Shown: positions 47,788 through 55,373 of the stretch, piece after piece
Layout: every line of letters begins with the position of its first letter
How positions within the stretch are numbered: position 1 is the stretch's first letter
The notes under the pieces: generated by a model
The model's database searches: none
What the model was told of the DNA's origin: nothing
The model's input: only the letters and a program-made list of their open reading frames with translations
NCBI RefSeq assembly: GCF_053078305.1
Contig: NZ_CP166875.1
Strand: one strand, 5' to 3'
DNA length: 64,000 bases
Source: a plasmid
Program-made: the position numbers and the translations under genes

Positions 47788-48471
47788 TTACGCAGCCTCC
47801 GGCATAAACCAGTCATCATTCGCGGCCCCCTGCTGCATGGCCCGTTGTACGGCGGCAAGGCGTTGCTGCCCGGCACGGTGATACTGCTCAAGCAGCTCGA
47901 TACCGATATACCGGCGTCCGGACTGGAAGGCGGCCACGCAGGTTGAGCCGCTGCCTGCAAACGGGTCCAGCACAATTGCGTTCGGGTGTGTGAAGCTCTC
48001 AATCAGCGGTTGCAGGCTGGTAACGGGCTTTTCCGTCGGGTGATGACGATTGCCTGAATATTTCCAGCCCAGCACGTCCGGCAGCGGGTTTTGTGGCAGA
48101 CGTGGACGGCCTTTTGCCAGGATGTAGGCACATTCGTGGCGATAGCCCACATATGCGGCCTTCGATGTGTAGTTTTTGGTGAAGACCAGGTGACCAACAA
48201 CGCTGAATCCCGCATTTTTCCAGGCAGACATAAAACGATCGACGCGATTCCAGCCATAGAAGCTCACCATTAACGCGTCTTTTTTGAGTACGCGGTACAT
48301 CTCATTACAGGCCGGTTGCAGCCATTCATCGGTTTTATCGCCGGCAATGGTACGCCCCTGACGGTCACGAAAACCGACGAGGTACGGCGGGTCGGTGAGG
48401 ATGAAATCAATGGCGTTATCAGGGATACGGGCCATAACATCGATGCAGTTACCGAGGACAAAACGGGACAT
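47788..48471 (-). CDS. orphan DNA methyltransferase (N6-adenine/N4-cytosine class, DPPY motif)
   Basis: Motif IV FILTDPPYL; C-terminal AdoMet-binding segment VLDPFAGSGSTCVAA; SD GAAGGAG; no adjacent restriction enzyme gene. Confidence 0.7.
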   Translation of the reverse strand: MSRFVLGNCIDVMARIPDNAIDFILTDPPYLVGFRDRQGRTIAGDKTDEWLQPACNEMYRVLKKDALMVSFYGWNRVDRFMSAWKNAGFSVVGHLVFTKNYTSKAAYVGYRHECAYILAKGRPRLPQNPLPDVLGWKYSGNRHHPTEKPVTSLQPLIESFTHPNAIVLDPFAGSGSTCVAAFQSGRRYIGIELLEQYHRAGQQRLAAVQRAMQQGAANDDWFMPEAA

Positions 48472-48485
48472 ACCAAACTCCTTCT

Positions 48486-48830
48486 CTTACAGAGGGCACC
48501 GGGAGGGCCCCCCTGTGGTGCCCGTTCCCCGCTGCCTGTGGGCTGTTCACCGCGTCCGGTAACGGGTCAGGCCGACCGTGGAATACCGCAGCCGTCGTCT
48601 TTTTGACGGCAAGGTTATGCCGCGAAAGCGGCTTGAAGGGCGTTCATCAGAAAAGGGCGACGGGCTGGCGTACACTGTCACCGGTGCCAGCCGGGAGCGG
48701 TAAAAGCGCCCGTCCCGTGCCCGGCCGGACGCGGGACACTGACCACAGGCAGCGTTTATGCCGCGCCGCGTCAGCCGGCGCAGTAAAAAGAGGAGCACGG
48801 CGACATCCTTTGTCGGAAAAGAAACGGGCG
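48486..48830 (-). promoter_or_regulatory. long imperfect-hairpin element, family B copy 1 (Frpo/ssi-like ssDNA promoter candidate)
   Basis: Near-identical to 49800-50115; distal arms complementary (CGCTGCCTGTGG ... CCACAGGCAGCG); contains TTGACGG. Confidence 0.45.
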
Positions 48831-48855
48831 GTTGCCCGCCCGTCTCCGTCATACT

Positions 48856-49782
48856 TCATCCGCCATAATGCGCCACCTTGTCGACTATCCACGCAGGTCC
48901 GGTGACTTCCGGCAGCTCATCGTCATCTGTCGGGGAAGACCATTCCAGTTCCCCCCACAGCACATCAACGAGCTCTCCGCGCTCATACAACTGCCAGCCA
49001 CAGAAATTGCAGCCCTGTTCGGCGTACCAGTGCTCCAGCGTGCAGCCGAAACGGCGGCTTAATTCTGCAACAACGTCGCTTTCCGGCTGACACCACGGCG
49101 TGTCGAAATCTACCTGAATGAAGTTTTCCCCCTGACTGCTGATATTCAGGTCATACCCACAAGGCCACTTCACGCCATACCGTTCTGTATACCAGTGATA
49201 TGCAGAAGGAACACCGTTCAGAACACCGCCGTTAAAGCCATTCACTTCAATATCCAGGCGGGTCGGCAAAACCGTCAGCAGGTCAAACGGCATGGTTTTT
49301 TCCGGCAGTACGTTGTCACACAGACGGTTCCACCACACCGATACATCCTCGTTACCCCAGATGTCACACCAGTCACCTCTTTTTGCGGTGAAATGCACAG
49401 TGATAGTTTCCCTGACATCATCCGGTAACTCTTCCCAGCGACGCTGTCCAGTACCGCTCTGCAGCCAGAGTTCATGCAGCATCAGGCAGTTTTGCTCATC
49501 CAGCAGTACACCGTTCTGCAGGTGTGTCAGCCAGCGGGTGAACGCGATATTTTCCGGTGATACAGCACCACGTCCGGCAGCCGTCACTCCGGGGCACTGC
49601 TCAGAGCGGATATTTTCAGTGATCTGCAGAAGTCCGGCACTTCCGGCCAGAAACAGCTGAATACCTTCATTTGTGGCGCGGCGATAAAACGGTGTGACTG
49701 CACCGCTGGCCAGTCGTTTAATCTCAGCAATCTGTGCCGGTTCACCAGAAAAATACATACGATTCGAGCACCAGTTTGGCAT
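48856..49782 (-). CDS. hypothetical leading-region protein (308 aa), Trp/Cys-rich
   Basis: SD GAGGAG before ATG 49782; directly downstream of element B2. Confidence 0.5.
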   Translation of the reverse strand: MPNWCSNRMYFSGEPAQIAEIKRLASGAVTPFYRRATNEGIQLFLAGSAGLLQITENIRSEQCPGVTAAGRGAVSPENIAFTRWLTHLQNGVLLDEQNCLMLHELWLQSGTGQRRWEELPDDVRETITVHFTAKRGDWCDIWGNEDVSVWWNRLCDNVLPEKTMPFDLLTVLPTRLDIEVNGFNGGVLNGVPSAYHWYTERYGVKWPCGYDLNISSQGENFIQVDFDTPWCQPESDVVAELSRRFGCTLEHWYAEQGCNFCGWQLYERGELVDVLWGELEWSSPTDDDELPEVTGPAWIVDKVAHYGG

Positions 49783-49799
49783 GGGAATTCTCCTCACAG

Positions 49800-50115
49800 G
49801 AGCACCGGGAGGGAGCCCCTGTGGCGCCCGTTCCCCGCTGCCTGTGGGCTGTTCACCGCGTCCGGTAACGGGTCAGGCCGACCGTGGAATACCGCAGCCG
49901 TCGTCTGTTTGACGGCAAGGTTATGCCGCGAAAGCGGCTTGAAGGGCGTTCATCAGAAAAGGGCGACGGGCTGGCGTACACTATCACCGACGCCAGCCGG
50001 GAGCGGTAAAAGCGCCCGTCCCGTGCCCGCCGGACGCGGGACACTGACCACAGGCAGCGTTTATGCCGCGCCGCGTCAGCCGGCGCAGTAAAAAGAGGAG
50101 CACGGCGACATCCTT
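49800..50115 (-). promoter_or_regulatory. long imperfect-hairpin element, family B copy 2
   Basis: About 97% identical by eye to copy 1 over roughly 310 bp. Confidence 0.45.
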
Positions 50116-50159
50116 TTCCCCTGAACATCCGTCAGCCTTTCTCTGCGGCAAGATCAATC

Positions 50160-50385
50160 CTTAACAGAAAAAAAACCAACAAGCACCCACATAAAAAACA
50201 AAAAACCCAAGCAACACCCACACAAACAAAAAAAACACCCAGAAAACACCCAAAGACAAACAACAATAAAGTAATGAAACCCATAAAACACCCAAAAAAA
50301 GACAAAAAAGATTAAATAGCACTTGAACGCCACCAAAAAAATACTATTATGGGTATAGACACCCAAACGACACCCAAAAGAGGAT
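50160..50385 (+). repeat. parC-like centromere: A/C-rich iterons (ACACCCA and variants)
   Basis: At least 8 direct copies of (A)ACACCCA in a C/A-rich tract directly upstream of the ParM-like gene. Confidence 0.45.
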
Positions 50386-50388
50386 TTT

Positions 50389-51360
50389 ATGATTAAGATA
50401 TTCTGTGATGATGGTTCTACAGCGGTTAAGCTGGCATGGTTTGAAAACGGGGAACTAAAAACCCTCATTAGTCACAATTCTTTCAAGGAAGGCTGGAACA
50501 CATCAGGATTTGGCAGTGAGAAAACTTATAATTACTTAGTCGATGGAGAGAAATATGCGTTTGATACACATAACCCATCAGCAATAGTCACAACCAATAT
50601 TGAGTTTCAATATAGTGTAGAAAATCGTCTCGCTGTACATCACGCACTACTACAAACAGGAATGGAGCCTGGGGATGTAGAGCTTTGGGTTACATTACCT
50701 GTATCTGAATATTTCACTACAGATATGCAAGAGAATTCGGATAACATAAGAAAAAAAATAGAAAACCTGAAAAAAGAAATTACACTGAATAAAGGCAGCG
50801 TATTTTCAATCAAGAAAGTTCATGTATTACCCGAGTCTCTACCTGCAGCGTTGACCTCTCTCGAAGAGGATAAAGTCAGTGATCTTGAAACGTCCCTTGT
50901 CGTCGATCTTGGTGGAACAACTCTTGATTGTGGCGCTATAGCTGGCAGATATAAAAATGTAACACAAGTATCCGGAGAACCTGGTCTTGGCGTAACTCTG
51001 GTAACAACGGCGACAATGAATGCCCTGAAACAGGCAGGAACGCATACCAGCTACTATATTGCAGATCAACTGGTTAGAAACAGAAATGCTGATGATTTAT
51101 TCGAAATTGTTGTTAATGACAGCAGTAAAATAGATGATGTGAAATCAGTAATTGAAAACAGTATTACAAGACTTTCAGACAGAGTTATAAATCATTTACA
51201 CTCGTACAAAGGGATAAATCGTATATACATGACTGGTGGTGGTGCGGAACTAATCTACCCTGCAATAAAAAAAGCATTCCCCTTATTAAAGGATAAAGTA
51301 AAAATTTTACCAGATGCGCAATTAGCCCTTGTTATTTCTATTGCTGAAATAAATCGATAA
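50389..51360 (+). CDS. parM: actin-like plasmid segregation ATPase (ParM/StbA family)
   Basis: N-terminal IFCDDGSTAVKLAW and phosphate-2 motif VVDLGGTTLD; overall resemblance to R1 ParM; 323 aa. Confidence 0.75.
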   Translation: MIKIFCDDGSTAVKLAWFENGELKTLISHNSFKEGWNTSGFGSEKTYNYLVDGEKYAFDTHNPSAIVTTNIEFQYSVENRLAVHHALLQTGMEPGDVELWVTLPVSEYFTTDMQENSDNIRKKIENLKKEITLNKGSVFSIKKVHVLPESLPAALTSLEEDKVSDLETSLVVDLGGTTLDCGAIAGRYKNVTQVSGEPGLGVTLVTTATMNALKQAGTHTSYYIADQLVRNRNADDLFEIVVNDSSKIDDVKSVIENSITRLSDRVINHLHSYKGINRIYMTGGGAELIYPAIKKAFPLLKDKVKILPDAQLALVISIAEINR

Positions 51361-51371
51361 TGAGGTACAGG

Positions 51372-51923
51372 ATGAGTGATGAACGTCGTAAATTATGGCT
51401 ATACTTATATCCTGATGAGCCACAGCAAAAATCCGCAATAGAAACCATTGAAGAAATACCTCAAAGACAACGTTCTGATTTCTTCAGAGATAGTATTGTT
51501 GCAGGTATTGCATTATCAAAACTCGATAAACGATTACCTGCACTTGTATCTATGTTACTACAGCAAGATAGTAATATAGATACTCTTGTACGTATTTTAA
51601 AAATACTATTCCCCAAGCTTGATATTGACTCAACGGAAGATAAATCTACACTCTGTGCCGTTGCTTGGCAAAAAAGATGTCGGGATGAATTACAACAAGG
51701 CACACCATGGTCTGCCTGGTTTGCGATTAGTGAGGATGAATATAATCATCATCTTAATCATCCAGAATCAAACAGTCAGGTACGTGCATTATGGGCTTAT
51801 GATGAAAACGAGCAGAAAAAGGATATACAGGATAAAGAGAGAACGCCCTTTCCGGAGGCCAACACCAATACAAGTTCAGAAACATTGAGTAATGCTAAAA
51901 AATTATTTGGTAATTCAAATTAA
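51372..51923 (+). CDS. putative partition adaptor (ParR/StbB-position)
   Basis: Immediately follows the ParM-like gene; no motif recognised, assignment by position only. Confidence 0.35.
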   Translation: MSDERRKLWLYLYPDEPQQKSAIETIEEIPQRQRSDFFRDSIVAGIALSKLDKRLPALVSMLLQQDSNIDTLVRILKILFPKLDIDSTEDKSTLCAVAWQKRCRDELQQGTPWSAWFAISEDEYNHHLNHPESNSQVRALWAYDENEQKKDIQDKERTPFPEANTNTSSETLSNAKKLFGNSN

Positions 51924-51936
51924 TTATTCAAAGAAA

Positions 51937-51958
51937 ATCCCGGTCGAAGGGCCGGGAT
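51937..51958. terminator. bidirectional hairpin between convergent parR-like gene and helicase
   Basis: ATCCCGG-tcgaaggg-CCGGGAT. Confidence 0.45.
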
Positions 51959-52033
51959 GTTTACACGTTAACCACCCTGCAATTCTGCCACTCCTGATGC
52001 GGAATAACAGGACAGGACCGGGAACAGTCAGGC

Positions 52034-53560
52034 TCACTTTTTTCTCCGTCGTCTGCCACGCGCTCTGCTGCCTGTATTTTTTTCCCGGGATGCCGGCTCA
52101 CTCTGCAATGCCGGGGGAGGTACCTGTTTCAGGAGCTGGCGCAGCACACTGTTGAGGATCAGCGTCCGCCGAGCCCGTGTGGCAGCCACATAGAGCAGGT
52201 TGAGTTCATCCCGCAGTTTCTCTTCAAATTCCTGCACATTGTCCGTTCCCGGCTGCTCAAGCTCCTGAAAATCCTCATGCAGCCTCACTGTGTCCCATTC
52301 CAGGCCTTTGGCCCTGTGCACCGTGGTGACAGTCACGGCAGCAGCCTTTTCGTCACGGACCTCATATTTTCGCAGCGTGGCCACATGTTCCGGCAGCGGC
52401 GAAAACTTCTGAATGATAGCCACTGACTGCAGCATTTCCGCGTCCCGGCTTGCCTTTGCCGTCGCCTCATAGTCAGAGAACGACTCCCACGCAGCAAAGC
52501 GAGCCGGCTCCCGGATTTTTTCCGTCATTCCCACAGAAAACCACCACAGATCCAGCAGGCGGGCAACCGGCCAGGCATTCATACCGTTGATCCAGTATGT
52601 TTTCTGCTTCCTCCGGGCCGCGTGAAGCGCAGCACCAATCACGCCCATCACTGTCCGGCACAGCACCGCACAGTGAGGCATATTCCTCTCGGGTTTCAGC
52701 AACAGACGGTCATCACCGCCAAGCCCACAGACTTTTTTCGTCTCCCCGTCCAGAGCCAGCACAGCATTTGCCACATCTGCCACACAGGGACCGAAACGGA
52801 AACTGCCGGTAAGCCACAGCCTGTCTGCCGTGGCCAGAGAGGGGGTATTCAGCGCATCCACGGCACCCCGGAAGCGATAAATCTGCTGATGTGGATCACC
52901 CACCATCACCAGCGTTCCACGGTGGCGCAGGACCAGGTCGGAGATCACCGGACTGGCGTCCTGGGCTTCATCAAACAGGATTTCATCGTACTTTGCGGAC
53001 AGATCCGGCTGCGAAAGCTGGTACAGCTTCAGATACAGATCATGAACGACCGGAAAGTCATCACTGCGGTCGCACATTCTTTGCCAGAGACGCACGGCCA
53101 GCGGCAGCACCTCTGCTGCGCGCAGTGGCGGCCTGGCACGGACATGCACCTCAGACAACGTCGTGTCCGCACTGTTCATGAAAGCCTGTAGGGTTTCCCT
53201 GACGGCCGCAGCCAACGGCCACTGGCGCAGTGAAAGCGCCCCGGCGATATCAGTAATGCCCAGGGAAGGCACGAGACGGTGGGAGTAATGTCGTCCAAAT
53301 TCCGGCCACGCCAGCTGATGTGCAGTCCGGCAACAGACATTCACCGGGAAGCGTGCCTGAGCCTCCTCCCGGACAGACCGGTTGAATGCGATATAGAGCA
53401 TACGGCGTTCAGGCCGGGCCTGCGCATAAGCCACCAGTGTGGCTGTTTTGCCGGTGCCGGCAAAAGCCCTGACAACCAGTCGCTGTCCCTGCCAGTTAAT
53501 GACAGCCTGTTGTTCAGCGGTCGGAGCGTGACGGATTTTCCTGACCGGGTGCTGAGTCAT
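52034..53560 (-). CDS. UvrD/Rep-like superfamily-1 DNA helicase (about 508 aa)
   Basis: Walker A AGTGKTAT, motif II FDEAQD, C-terminal VTTVHRAKGLEWDTV; ATG overlaps the upstream stop (ATGA). Confidence 0.7.
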   Translation of the reverse strand: MTQHPVRKIRHAPTAEQQAVINWQGQRLVVRAFAGTGKTATLVAYAQARPERRMLYIAFNRSVREEAQARFPVNVCCRTAHQLAWPEFGRHYSHRLVPSLGITDIAGALSLRQWPLAAAVRETLQAFMNSADTTLSEVHVRARPPLRAAEVLPLAVRLWQRMCDRSDDFPVVHDLYLKLYQLSQPDLSAKYDEILFDEAQDASPVISDLVLRHRGTLVMVGDPHQQIYRFRGAVDALNTPSLATADRLWLTGSFRFGPCVADVANAVLALDGETKKVCGLGGDDRLLLKPERNMPHCAVLCRTVMGVIGAALHAARRKQKTYWINGMNAWPVARLLDLWWFSVGMTEKIREPARFAAWESFSDYEATAKASRDAEMLQSVAIIQKFSPLPEHVATLRKYEVRDEKAAAVTVTTVHRAKGLEWDTVRLHEDFQELEQPGTDNVQEFEEKLRDELNLLYVAATRARRTLILNSVLRQLLKQVPPPALQSEPASREKNTGSRARGRRRRKK

Positions 53561-54183
53561 TTTGCCGTTGCGTCCTCCCCGTCCGTCATCCCGGCCAGAG
53601 CGACCTGTTTTTTCTCCCACCGTCGGTCCCGGATGGCCAGCCAGCGTTGAGCATTTTTTGCCTCATCCTCAGAAACCAGCCCGGCAGGCTTACCGTCGAG
53701 GTCATAGCGGGTGGCACCGGTGACAGCGGTACGCAACAGATAGACACGGCGGGAGGTGATACAGGATACGGCACAGTCCCATTCATCCCGGGTGAGTCCG
53801 GCTTCAGGGTGCTCAGCCAGCCAGGCAGGAATATCGCGGGAGATACCGACCCTGAGAGGCAGAAAACCGCCGCCTTCAGCGCGAAGATGCGGGAAAATCG
53901 CCTTGACCTTTTCCATGCACTGGTCGGTGAACTCCCGTGTCCAGTGCTCTCTGAGGGGTCTGCGTGGTGGTCTTCCTTTCCTTTTTTTTCCGACGGCAGC
54001 AGGCGCAGGAGACGCATCCTGGATGGGGGCTGGCAGCTGCTCATCAGCAGCAGCCGGTGGTGCCCCCACTTCCGGTACAGGCGAAATGACAGTCTCTGTT
54101 TTATCGACGACAGGTGGTGGTGAAATAACGCGACGTTTTTTCACCACAATGACGGGCGTTTTCTTTTCCTGATTCCTGGCCAT
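53557..54183 (-). CDS. ProQ/FinO-domain RNA-binding protein (FinO-like)
   Basis: Basic/Pro-rich N-terminus; C-terminal domain aligns by eye with FinO (PLRVGISRDI ... GATRYDLDGKP ... EDEAKNAQRWL). Confidence 0.55.
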   Translation of the reverse strand: MARNQEKKTPVIVVKKRRVISPPPVVDKTETVISPVPEVGAPPAAADEQLPAPIQDASPAPAAVGKKRKGRPPRRPLREHWTREFTDQCMEKVKAIFPHLRAEGGGFLPLRVGISRDIPAWLAEHPEAGLTRDEWDCAVSCITSRRVYLLRTAVTGATRYDLDGKPAGLVSEDEAKNAQRWLAIRDRRWEKKQVALAGMTDGEDATAK

Positions 54184-54635: not shown

Positions 54636-55217
54636 TTATTTATAAAACGTTGCAATTTTAGCATCATTTTTTATTGTTCTTTTTAACCTGAAGTACGTCG
54701 ATCGAGAGATACCTGTTTTTTCTGTCACACTGCCCAGAGATTCTCCCTGTGATATAAGCTCCAACGCTGTAGGCGTTCGTGGATGCTTCTTCCTGCCAAA
54801 TTTTACGCCTGCGGCAAGTGCCGCTATTCTTCCGTCGTTTGTCCGCTCCAGAATACGCTCACGTTCCGCTTCAGCTACAGCAGCAAGGATTTGGATAACC
54901 ATTTTGCCCATTGTCCCTTCTGTACTGAGACCGTTCTCCAGGAACCGGATGGCGATCCCCTTTTTGTAACAGCTATCAACCACACGAATCATGTCAGCAG
55001 TGTTACGCCCCAGTCGGTCCATTTTTGTACAGATGATTACGTCGTCTTTCTCTGCACGGGCCAACAACCGCTGTAGTCCTTCCCGTTCATCAGTTGCGCC
55101 AGTCATCATATCCGTAAAAATACGATCTTCCCGTACCCCGGCATTTTTTAGCTCCGAGATTTGATGTGTTAGCTTCTGATGACTGGTTGATACCCGTGCA
55201 TACCCCAATAACGCCAT
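54636..55217 (-). CDS. tnpR: serine recombinase (resolvase TnpR)
   Basis: N-terminal LLGYARVSTSHQ catalytic motif; C-terminal HTH. Confidence 0.8.
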   Translation of the reverse strand: MALLGYARVSTSHQKLTHQISELKNAGVREDRIFTDMMTGATDEREGLQRLLARAEKDDVIICTKMDRLGRNTADMIRVVDSCYKKGIAIRFLENGLSTEGTMGKMVIQILAAVAEAERERILERTNDGRIAALAAGVKFGRKKHPRTPTALELISQGESLGSVTEKTGISRSTYFRLKRTIKNDAKIATFYK

Positions 55218-55373
55218 TTTTAGTCTCACTTATCGTTTTTGACACTGCATGGTATCATAATGTACAAAATACGATTTTTGAAACCTGCTTTTATGCTGTT
55301 TTAGACAGGTATCAGATATCTTAATATTTGATACTAGCCATATTTAACAAATATTTAGCATTTTGGTAAATGT
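55218..55373. promoter_or_regulatory. res site region between divergent tnpR and tnpA
   Basis: AT-rich 156-bp divergent intergenic region; subsites not resolved. Confidence 0.4.

Follow-up and report, generated by a model that had tools for sequence, protein, structure and literature searches.

A putative ParMRC-type partition cassette with an additional domain in ParR on an I-complex plasmid of Escherichia coli

Introduction

The plasmid DNA analysed here (the window, 64,000 nucleotides) carries at positions 50160-51923 an array of short A/C-rich repeats followed by two genes. This arrangement raises the question of whether the three elements together form a partition system in which the repeats act as the centromere, and of why the second gene is longer than expected for such a system. 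ParMRC systems are among the best understood plasmid segregation machines. We put the probability at roughly 0.9 that the segment is an active partition cassette of type II (ParMRC), homologous to the parMRC/stb loci of R1 and R100, and that it serves a conjugative I-complex (IncK2/Z) plasmid of E. coli. An identical locus is already annotated in RefSeq for IncK2/Z plasmids, pL2-87 among them, and the public annotation gives parM and a 'plasmid partitioning/stability family protein'. With ParMRC well understood and a copy already annotated, the segment matters little as a partition locus. The cassette is an ordinary ParM/ParR/parC system, and its sole unusual feature is a small extra domain within ParR. 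The features of the locus are collected in Table 1.

Table 1. Features of the par locus and its downstream flank, with positions in the window
Feature	Position	Strand	Remarks
parC upstream iteron block	50183..50300	+	Seven ACCCA cores, including three pairs 11 bp apart
Candidate par promoter	50323..50350	+	TTGAAC-16 nt-TATTAT; 9/12 consensus matches, sigma-70-like
Inverted ACCCA core	50350..50354	-	TATGGGTATA on + strand (TGGGT); abuts -10 hexamer
parC promoter-proximal iteron pair	50359..50380	+	ACACCCAAACG and ACACCCAAAAG, 11 bp apart; between -10 box and Shine-Dalgarno
parM	50389..51360	+	Actin-like segregation ATPase, 323 aa; GAGGA Shine-Dalgarno 6 nt upstream
parR	51372..51923	+	Putative centromere-binding adaptor, 183 aa from the likely start; Plasmid_stab_B; RefSeq WP_001760564.1
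ParR N-terminal domain	51384..51611	+	Residues ~5-80; ribbon-helix-helix/helical, putative DNA-binding and dimerization domain
ParR middle domain	51651..51800	+	Residues ~94-143, ~50 aa; between ribbon-helix-helix domain and C-terminal motif
ParR C-terminal motif	51876..51911	+	SETLSNAKKLFG; presumed ParM-binding amphipathic helix
Hairpin	51937..51958	.	G+C-rich, ATCCCGG-N8-CCGGGAT; between convergent parR and UvrD-like helicase genes

Results

Identity and Context of the Locus

The gene order is parC-parM-parR, which is the type II arrangement and that of the prototype type II system, the R1/R100 parMRC locus (stbAB/parA locus, IncFII). An earlier note on this DNA had read the segment as ParMRC, and this reading is borne out by an actin-fold ParM, a ParR of the Plasmid_stab_B family, and repeats that straddle a sigma-70-like promoter. 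Its description of the module as AT-rich also holds, with parM-parR having a G+C content of 37.5% as against 52% for the window. In sequence, the gene order, both proteins, and the repeat array all conform to a type II ParMRC system. By analogy with R1, ParR would then be expected to bind DNA, repress its own operon, and capture filaments, and the cassette to stabilize the plasmid.

The host plasmid is of the I-complex type (MOBP/MPF_I), whereas R1 and R100 belong to IncF. The locus is situated where the leading region ends. The neighboring genes encode ParM, a DUF1281 protein, and a UvrD-like helicase. The neighborhood in R100 is alike (DNA methylase, short ORF, parC, parM, parR), and a GC-rich element together with a DNA methylase gene upstream of par is common to R100 and the present locus. 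No Walker-type ParA gene adjoins the locus, and the annotation of the near-identical plasmid pJNE170426-2 (86 kb) lists no ParA; a type Ib ParG-like system was rejected on this ground. In contrast, pB171 par1 has a divergent type Ib ParA locus as its partner. The cassette is probably the sole active partition function of the small IncK2/Z and IncI-gamma/K1 plasmid lineage. The searchable literature yielded nothing specific on partition in IncK2/Z plasmids or on IncK/IncK2 parM.

ParM

The parM product matched the Pfam families StbA_N (PF06406, 1.6e-63) and ParM C-terminal domain (PF21523, 1.5e-42), each exceeding its gathering cut-off by a wide margin, and the structure of R1 ParM (PDB 1mwk, E 4.4e-76). 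It is 42% identical to R1/R100 ParM over 313 aa. The DDGST (phosphate 1), DLGGTTLD (phosphate 2), and GGGAEL (adenosine) motifs are intact and align with those of R100 ParM, with which the protein likewise has the PES(L/I)PA motif in common. The proposal that this gene encodes a ParM-like actin ATPase is supported by its domain and structure matches and by its nucleotide-binding motifs.

The parC Repeat Array

Nine direct ACCCA cores (at 50185, 50205, 50216, 50237, 50248, 50279, 50290, 50361, and 50372) and one inverted core are found upstream of parM, the whole array spanning 50183-50376. Exact ACACCCA occurs six times on the + strand between 50214 and 50376 and six times on both strands of the remaining ~63.8 kb; further heptamers are GCACCCA at 50183 and AAACCCA at 50203 and 50277. 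Successive cores are spaced by 20, 11, 21, 11, 31, 11, 71, and 11 bp, and therefore the seven upstream cores lie on one face of the helix. The gaps in the upstream block are occupied by degenerate A/C-rich units on a ~10.5-bp grid.

The array consists of 56% A, 25% C, 9% G, and 10% T, with strong strand asymmetry. A null model was obtained by shuffling the 229-bp region 5000 times with dinucleotides preserved, which controls for A/C richness because the region itself is shuffled. The shuffles contained a mean of 2.4 and a maximum of 7 ACCCA cores against the 9 observed, 0.33 copies of ACACCCA against 6, and 0.02 pairs exactly 11 bp apart against 4. None of the 5000 reached the observed repeat counts. 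The ACACCCA-type direct repeats that the earlier note had pointed out upstream of parM are real.

The note had also called these repeats unusually C/A-rich, which was mistaken: the iterons of R1/R100 parC read AAACCCA, CAACCCA, or ATACCCA with an 11-bp periodicity, and parC-like iterons have been termed an 'A/C rich sequence' (PMC4949242). The A/C-rich repeats of R100 parC have an (A/C)ACCCA core and an 11-bp period and flank the promoter on both sides, as they do here. The arrangement nevertheless differs from that in R1, where parC comprises two sets of five contiguous 11-bp iterons with 39 bp between the sets (PMC2241845). In place of these symmetric sets the present array has seven strong upstream cores arranged as 11-bp pairs that are interrupted by gaps of 20, 21, and 31 bp, two downstream cores, and one inverted core. 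In pB171, the sites for ParR consist of a 10-bp direct repeat in two copies (PMC9426499), and the repeats of a pB171-type locus were read as ATTGAGTATT, which, unlike those of the present locus, are not A/C-rich.

The layout of the array is retained in relatives. In two 88%-identical loci on IncI-gamma/K1 plasmids (L002 and L003) the 11-bp pairs are kept, the inverted core has the same position at -38 from the ATG, and the promoter-proximal pair is found at the identical offsets of -28 and -17. Repeats of the ACCCATAA type are also present upstream of the Arsenophonus homologue (L004), which has its inverted core at -40.

Arrays of direct repeats on plasmids are frequently sites for Rep proteins, and the repeats might accordingly be replication iterons, or sites for another protein, rather than ParR sites. 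We regard this as extremely improbable. The replicon, of the IncFII-family RepA/I-complex type, lies ~6 kb from the array, and replicons of this kind are controlled by antisense RNA and are not known to use iterons. Moreover, the array has the R1 iteron core, is placed directly ahead of parM exactly as is R1 parC, and in Arsenophonus accompanies parMR on plasmids of unrelated backbone. With no iteron-type Rep gene adjacent, replication iterons were rejected.

Candidate Promoter and Probable Autoregulation

The candidate promoter sits between the repeat blocks, and its hexamers are kept in both IncI-gamma/K1 relatives as TTGAAC/TTGATC and TA(C/T)TAT. The R1 promoter is likewise located between two iteron sets and is repressed by ParR (PMC2241845), which requires a minimum of two iterons for binding (PMC9426499). 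By comparison with R1, the promoter-proximal iteron pair is a probable autorepression operator.

ParR Start, N-terminal Domain, and C-terminal Tail

The longest parR ORF (51360-51923) encodes the 187-aa adaptor described in the earlier note. However, the start MS(D/E)ERRK found in RefSeq and in 13 of 13 aligned homologues corresponds to the ATG at 51372, which is preceded by GAGG and lies 12 nt past the parM stop codon. The likely start is therefore 51372, giving a protein of 183 rather than 187 aa.

ParR matched Pfam Plasmid_stab_B (PF10784, 2.8e-19) and a PHROG annotated as 'partition protein' (1.2e-17). The best solved-structure match for its N-terminal domain is pB171 par1 ParR (StbB; PDB 2jd3), with a sequence E-value of 1e-12 and a Foldseek probability of 1.00 (TM 0.64 on the target). 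Residues 3-82 are 40% identical to R100 ParR, and the N-terminal domain has a dN/dS of 0.07. The recognition strand (RRKLWLYL) differs from that of R1 ParR (RRTIAFKL), so that ParR is only presumed to bind ACCCA.

The SETLSNAKKLFG tail resembles the C terminus of R100 ParR (EETKKNAMKLIN; NAMKLIN as compared with NAKKLFG here) and that of pB171 ParR (VRLKMKKLF, in which LKMKKLF is similarly basic-hydrophobic). Its residues Glu-170, Thr-171, Asn-174, Ala-175, Lys-176, and Lys-177 are nearly invariant among long-form ParRs. A helix is predicted for residues 170-178 with low confidence, and the AF2 model of full-length ParR has a low overall confidence (pLDDT 61.7). In the structure of R1 ParM with a ParR peptide the ParR tail reportedly binds ParM, and the SETLSNAKKLFG tail is presumed to do the same.

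The Middle Domain of ParR

The second gene had been noted as larger than typical ParR genes, and this is indeed so: ParR has 183 aa as compared with 117 in R1/R100 and 130 in pB171. The additional length arises because a conserved folded domain of ~50 aa is inserted in the linker. Its consensus is AVAWQKRxRDxL..G.PWxAWFAIxExEY..(6)..P..(4)..QVRAL, with 14 invariant positions across 12 sequences, and its predicted fold is beta-beta-alpha-beta (pLDDT 88.7). Its dN/dS of 0.27 indicates purifying selection. The motif is missing from the ParRs of R1/R100 and of pB171. These canonical short ParRs comprise a ribbon-helix-helix domain and an unstructured tail with no folded domain in the linker, and the middle domain is a subfamily-specific addition. 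Foldseek gave no PDB fold match for the middle domain, the full-length model matching the N-domain of pB171 ParR alone. The searchable literature held nothing specific on ParRs with extra domains.

Outside ParR, the domain recurs in uncharacterized phage-like proteins, where it is joined to Lar-like or ASCH/DUF3850 domains. Pfam and PHROG scans of these non-ParR proteins assigned no family to the domain itself. Two of the phage-like homologues are on contigs of 1.3-1.5 kb, where a phage-like neighbor (PF25682) was the one informative gene.

The middle domain is acidic overall, and its sequence therefore makes a DNA-binding role unlikely. Our best guess is that it serves as a module for protein-protein interaction or higher-order assembly, on the side where the ParR/parC complex would capture filaments. 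A less likely reading is that the cassette does segregate the plasmid but that long-form ParR has gained a second job, its middle domain recruiting a plasmid or host factor to the parC complex, for example the relaxosome, the conjugation machinery, or a phage- or defense-related partner. The conservation, confident fold, and purifying selection of the domain, its mobility among phage-like proteins, and the position of the locus at the leading-region edge would all suit such a role, as would the report that R1 ParM and ParR promote the conjugative transfer of DNA and stimulate the relaxase TraI (PMC4949242). On the other hand, the domain has no annotated function in the Pfam/PHROG scans, its acidity speaks against a role in DNA binding, and a simple structural role as a spacer or oligomerization element in the ParR ring accounts for the data just as well. 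More speculative still is the proposal that this phage-shared domain makes the segrosome a platform on which a second partner docks, so that segregation is coupled to another process, for example conjugative transfer or phage/defense interplay. If that were true, the domain would represent a new family of functional interest in phages too.

Relatives and Distribution of Long-form ParR

Long-form ParR is rare. It was found on 34 PLSDB plasmids (from E. coli, E. marmotae, and Arsenophonus) and in 11 of 5426 complete E. coli genomes; in E. coli and E. marmotae the subfamily resides on plasmids of the I-complex. The ParRs of Arsenophonus/Xenorhabdus plasmids are 53-57% identical to the present protein over the full length and have the same three parts, namely the ribbon-helix-helix domain, the middle domain, and a C-terminal SETLxNAKKxFG. 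As at the present locus, their genes adjoin parM and have ACCCATAA-type repeats upstream, but they occur on different plasmid backbones (MOBF/MPF_F in A. nasoniae), and the upstream regions are more AT-rich with the repeats wider apart. These proteins are annotated only as 'plasmid partitioning/stability family protein', and no experimental characterization of them was found.

The rarity of the locus in E. coli and the degeneracy of some repeat positions would fit a decaying or inactive remnant, whose A/C-rich tract would be only low-complexity DNA or an operator without centromere function. Such a remnant is very improbable given that neither ORF is disrupted and both products match RefSeq proteins exactly, that the ATPase motifs are conserved, and that the repeats exceed the expectation from local composition and keep their positions in diverged relatives; nor is any other partition system annotated on the relative plasmid pJNE170426-2. 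The strong purifying selection on parM (dN/dS 0.04 relative to L002), together with that on parR (0.19), led us to reject a pseudogenized remnant.

Proposed Mechanism and Its Implications

An active ParMRC cassette would be expected, by homology with R1, to operate as follows. ParR dimers would bind the helically phased ACCCA iterons of parC cooperatively through the N-terminal ribbon-helix-helix domain, at the seven upstream sites, the inverted copy next to the -10 box, and the pair that follows it. This binding would build a bent nucleoprotein complex and at the same time repress the embedded promoter, making the operon autoregulated. The SETLSNAKKLFG helix would capture the ends of dynamically unstable ParM-ATP filaments, and filament growth between two ParR/parC complexes would push sister plasmids into opposite halves of the cell. 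The inserted domain of ParR, which has no counterpart in characterized ParRs, could alter this mechanism.

The iteron core that the centromere has in common with R1 makes it possible to test for partition-mediated incompatibility, or for cross-talk, with plasmids of the IncFII group. ParR also offers a tractable setting in which to study the role of a middle domain that is present in uncharacterized phage proteins as well.

Downstream Hairpin and RNA Elements

An Rfam scan of 48000-52500 detected no RNA element in the par locus, the only match being one to Erse, far below threshold, in the upstream repeat element. The hairpin downstream of parR resembles a terminator, and of its two strands the - strand has the better T-run.

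Identification of ParM and ParR

The locus is an uncharacterised but previously annotated member of the well-known ParMRC system; its genes are labelled 'parM' and 'plasmid partitioning/stability family protein' in the plasmids pL2-87 and pJNE170426-2. The parM product matched R1 ParM crystal structures (E 4e-76) and was 42% identical to R100 ParM across 313 residues, with DDGST, DLGGTTLD, PESxPA and GGGAEL kept. The ParM of R100 and the R1 protein deposited in the PDB are identical. Residues 10-79 of the parR product fitted Pfam Plasmid_stab_B (2.8e-19); the protein hit a PHROG 'partition protein' family and was 40% identical to R100 ParR over residues 3-82. It also matched the pB171 ParR/StbB structure 2jd3, both in sequence (E 1e-12) and in predicted fold (Foldseek probability 1.00). 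At the sequence level these homologies, the repeat array and its conservation support the ParMRC reading proposed in the earlier note.

Feature coordinates in the window
Feature	Position	Strand	Remarks
~316-bp element, copy 1	48496-48811		GC-rich, non-coding
DUF1281 gene	48856-49797	-	
~316-bp element, copy 2	49802-50116		GC-rich, non-coding
parC	50183-50380	+	
Direct ACCCA cores (nine)	50185, 50205, 50216, 50237, 50248, 50279, 50290, 50361, 50372	+	One-mismatch GCACCCA and AAACCCA included
Candidate promoter	50323-50350	+	TTGAAC-16-TATTAT, consensus-like
Inverted ACCCA core (one)	50350-50354	-	TGGGT, adjoins -10 box
Promoter-proximal pair (single)	-28/-17 from parM ATG	+	ACCCA cores
parM	50389-51360	+	323 aa; Pfam StbA_N 1.6e-63, ParM C-terminal domain 1.5e-42
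parR	51372-51923	+	
ParR middle domain	51651-51800	+	
UvrD-like helicase gene	52034-53620	-	528 aa, convergent with parR
ProQ/FinO family gene (annotation in relatives)	53557-54183	-	Upstream of helicase gene
Resolvase/invertase-like ORF	54636-55229		

The second gene had been described as a 187-aa putative adaptor, larger than typical ParR proteins. That length holds for the longest possible ORF, but the start used in RefSeq and in all homologues lies four codons further in, at ATG 51372 (MS(D/E)ERRK; GAGG 6 nt upstream), so ParR has 183 aa. It is indeed larger than the ParR proteins of R100 (117 aa) and pB171 (130 aa), owing to an inserted domain.

Relative to a homologue of 88% identity, dN/dS was 0.04 for parM and 0.19 for the whole of parR. 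Within parR the RHH domain had the lowest value (0.07), against 0.27 in the middle domain and 0.26-0.38 in the linker and tail. Selection maintains parM and parR together with the middle-domain insert, which speaks against the locus being a decaying remnant.

The parC repeat array

Immediately 5' of the two genes, which share one orientation, lies a tract (50160-50388) of strong strand asymmetry, with 56% A, 25% C, 9% G and 10% T. Six + strand copies of ACACCCA fall within 50214-50376, and the rest of the 64-kb window has only six more on both strands. Because the tract is itself A/C-rich, dinucleotide-preserving shuffles (n = 5000) were confined to its 229 bp. ACCCA occurred 9 times (2.4 expected), ACACCCA 6 times (0.33 expected) and ACCCA pairs at exactly 11 bp 4 times (0.02 expected); none of the 5000 shuffles equalled any of these counts. 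The earlier note, which counted eight or more direct repeats of the ACACCCA type, is thus borne out. The upstream seven cores are spaced by 20, 11, 21, 11, 31 and 11 bp, which places them on the same helix face; the skipped positions, read by eye, are filled by degenerate A/C-rich units.

The 88% relatives keep this array layout at identical offsets, inverted copy and proximal pair included. The Arsenophonus homologue is likewise preceded by ACCCATAA-type repeats, with TATGGGT at the -10 position.

The description of the array as unusually C/A-rich is refuted by comparison with R1/R100. In R100 parC, units of AAACCCA, CAACCCA and ATACCCA recur every 11 bp on both sides of the promoter, and a parC-like sequence has been termed 'A/C rich' (PMC4949242); A/C-rich ACCCA repeats are therefore a hallmark of the classical centromere. 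R1 parC comprises two sets of five 11-bp iterons with a 39-bp promoter region between them, and binds about one ParR dimer per iteron, repressing the promoter (PMC2241845); binding requires at least two iterons (PMC9426499; PMC4949242). The present array differs from R1 parC in having seven strong upstream cores, three of the spacings forming 11-bp pairs (a pair being the R1 minimal binding unit), an inverted core at the -10 box and one downstream pair. The pB171-type locus, unlike the present one, has ATTGAGTATT repeats that are not A/C-rich. The ParR N-domain is about equally close to the R1/R100 and pB171 prototypes, but the centromere is R1-like.

Long-form ParR and its middle domain

A tblastn search of PLSDB with the window ParR matched 297 plasmids, only 34 of them at ≥80% coverage (10 Escherichia, the remainder mostly Arsenophonus); the other matches were confined to residues ~5-80. 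In a large protein database 19 clusters matched, 13 full-length at 53-99% identity. An alignment of 14 long-form proteins has three conserved parts: the RHH/Plasmid_stab_B domain; residues ~94-143, AVAWQKRxRDxL..G.PWxAWFAIxExEY...P....QVRAL; and, beyond a variable low-complexity linker, a C-terminal SETLxNAKKxFG. This last motif is similar to the tails of R100 ParR (EETKKNAMKLIN) and pB171 ParR (VRLKMKKLF), and presumably forms the ParM-binding helix, as in the R1 ParM-ParR peptide structure.

An AF2 model of the middle domain (30-sequence alignment) had a pLDDT of 88.7, with a core above 95 and beta-beta-alpha-beta topology; in the model the block behaves as a folded domain. Its profile found only 28 matches among 1.84 billion representative proteins, ~10 of them ParR-like and the others unrelated proteins with the domain N-terminal, C-terminal or duplicated; in some non-ParR carriers its fusion partner is a Lar-like zinc module or an ASCH/DUF3850 domain. 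BFVD matches were uncharacterised Xanthomonas and Ralstonia phage proteins (E 2e-4 to 4e-3). No Pfam family, PHROG family or PDB fold matched the domain. It represents an unannotated small family (proteins P0027-P0045; VAWQ.R.R ... PW..W..I...Y ... VR.LYA), occurring in phage-like proteins singly, duplicated or in the Lar-like and ASCH/DUF3850 fusions, and is a modest lead.

Proposed mechanism

Alongside the parts, homologies, conservation and repeat statistics observed here, R1 offers the analogy from which we infer ParR binding, repression, filament capture and plasmid stabilisation. ParR dimers would bind the phased ACCCA iterons cooperatively, compact parC into a bent complex and switch off the embedded promoter. 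The ParR C-terminal helices would catch the ends of ParM-ATP filaments, whose insertional growth between two ParR/parC complexes would drive sister plasmids apart. In published models of the ParR/parC complex, the tail region is where ParM filament ends are captured. As the middle domain lies in this region, a protein-protein or assembly role is favoured; a recruitment role is less likely. ParM and ParR of R1 have been reported to boost conjugative transfer (PMC4949242).

Plasmid distribution and neighbourhood

E. coli pL2-87 carries the 1.86-kb par segment at 100% identity, and four further E. coli plasmids in PLSDB carry it at 99.4-99.9%. Each of the ten matching PLSDB records, 88% relatives included, is predicted conjugative. 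Both pL2-87 and pJNE170426-2 are typed IncK2/Z, MOBP and MPF_I; the plasmids carrying the 88% relatives, from E. coli and E. marmotae, are of type IncI-gamma/K1. Among 5426 complete E. coli genomes the locus occurs in 11, always plasmid-borne. R100 has the same gene neighbourhood as the window (DNA methylase, short ORF in a GC-rich element, parC, parM, parR).

The annotations of the near-identical 86-kb pJNE170426-2 include no ParA, and parMRC is probably its sole active partition system. The only other 'partition' annotation on that plasmid (locus record L006, 17419-19377) is a 652-aa ParB/RepB/Spo0J-family protein in the leading region, between ssb and psiB; lacking a ParA partner, it is probably no partition protein in the strict sense.

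The DUF1281 gene is bracketed by the two direct copies of the ~316-bp element (97-99% identical), the second stopping some 45-70 bp short of where the parC repeats begin. The 3' end of the element (GAGGAGC.CGGCGACATC.TTT) also stands immediately 5' of parC in R100 and the IncI-gamma/K1 relatives. The sole Rfam hit was Erse, sub-threshold and meaningless (25.5 bits; gathering score 138). The element resembles those of ssi/Frpo type in the leading regions of conjugative plasmids. In the closest relatives, pL2-87 (record L001, 3330-5054) and pJNE170426-2 (L006, 9016-10740), a group II intron with an ltrA reverse transcriptase/maturase gene separates the DUF1281 gene from parC; it is absent from ~49800-50100 of the window, which therefore derives from an intron-free plasmid variant. 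Beyond the ProQ/FinO gene, the relatives carry a 3'-5' exonuclease gene, the yacAB toxin-antitoxin pair and repA.
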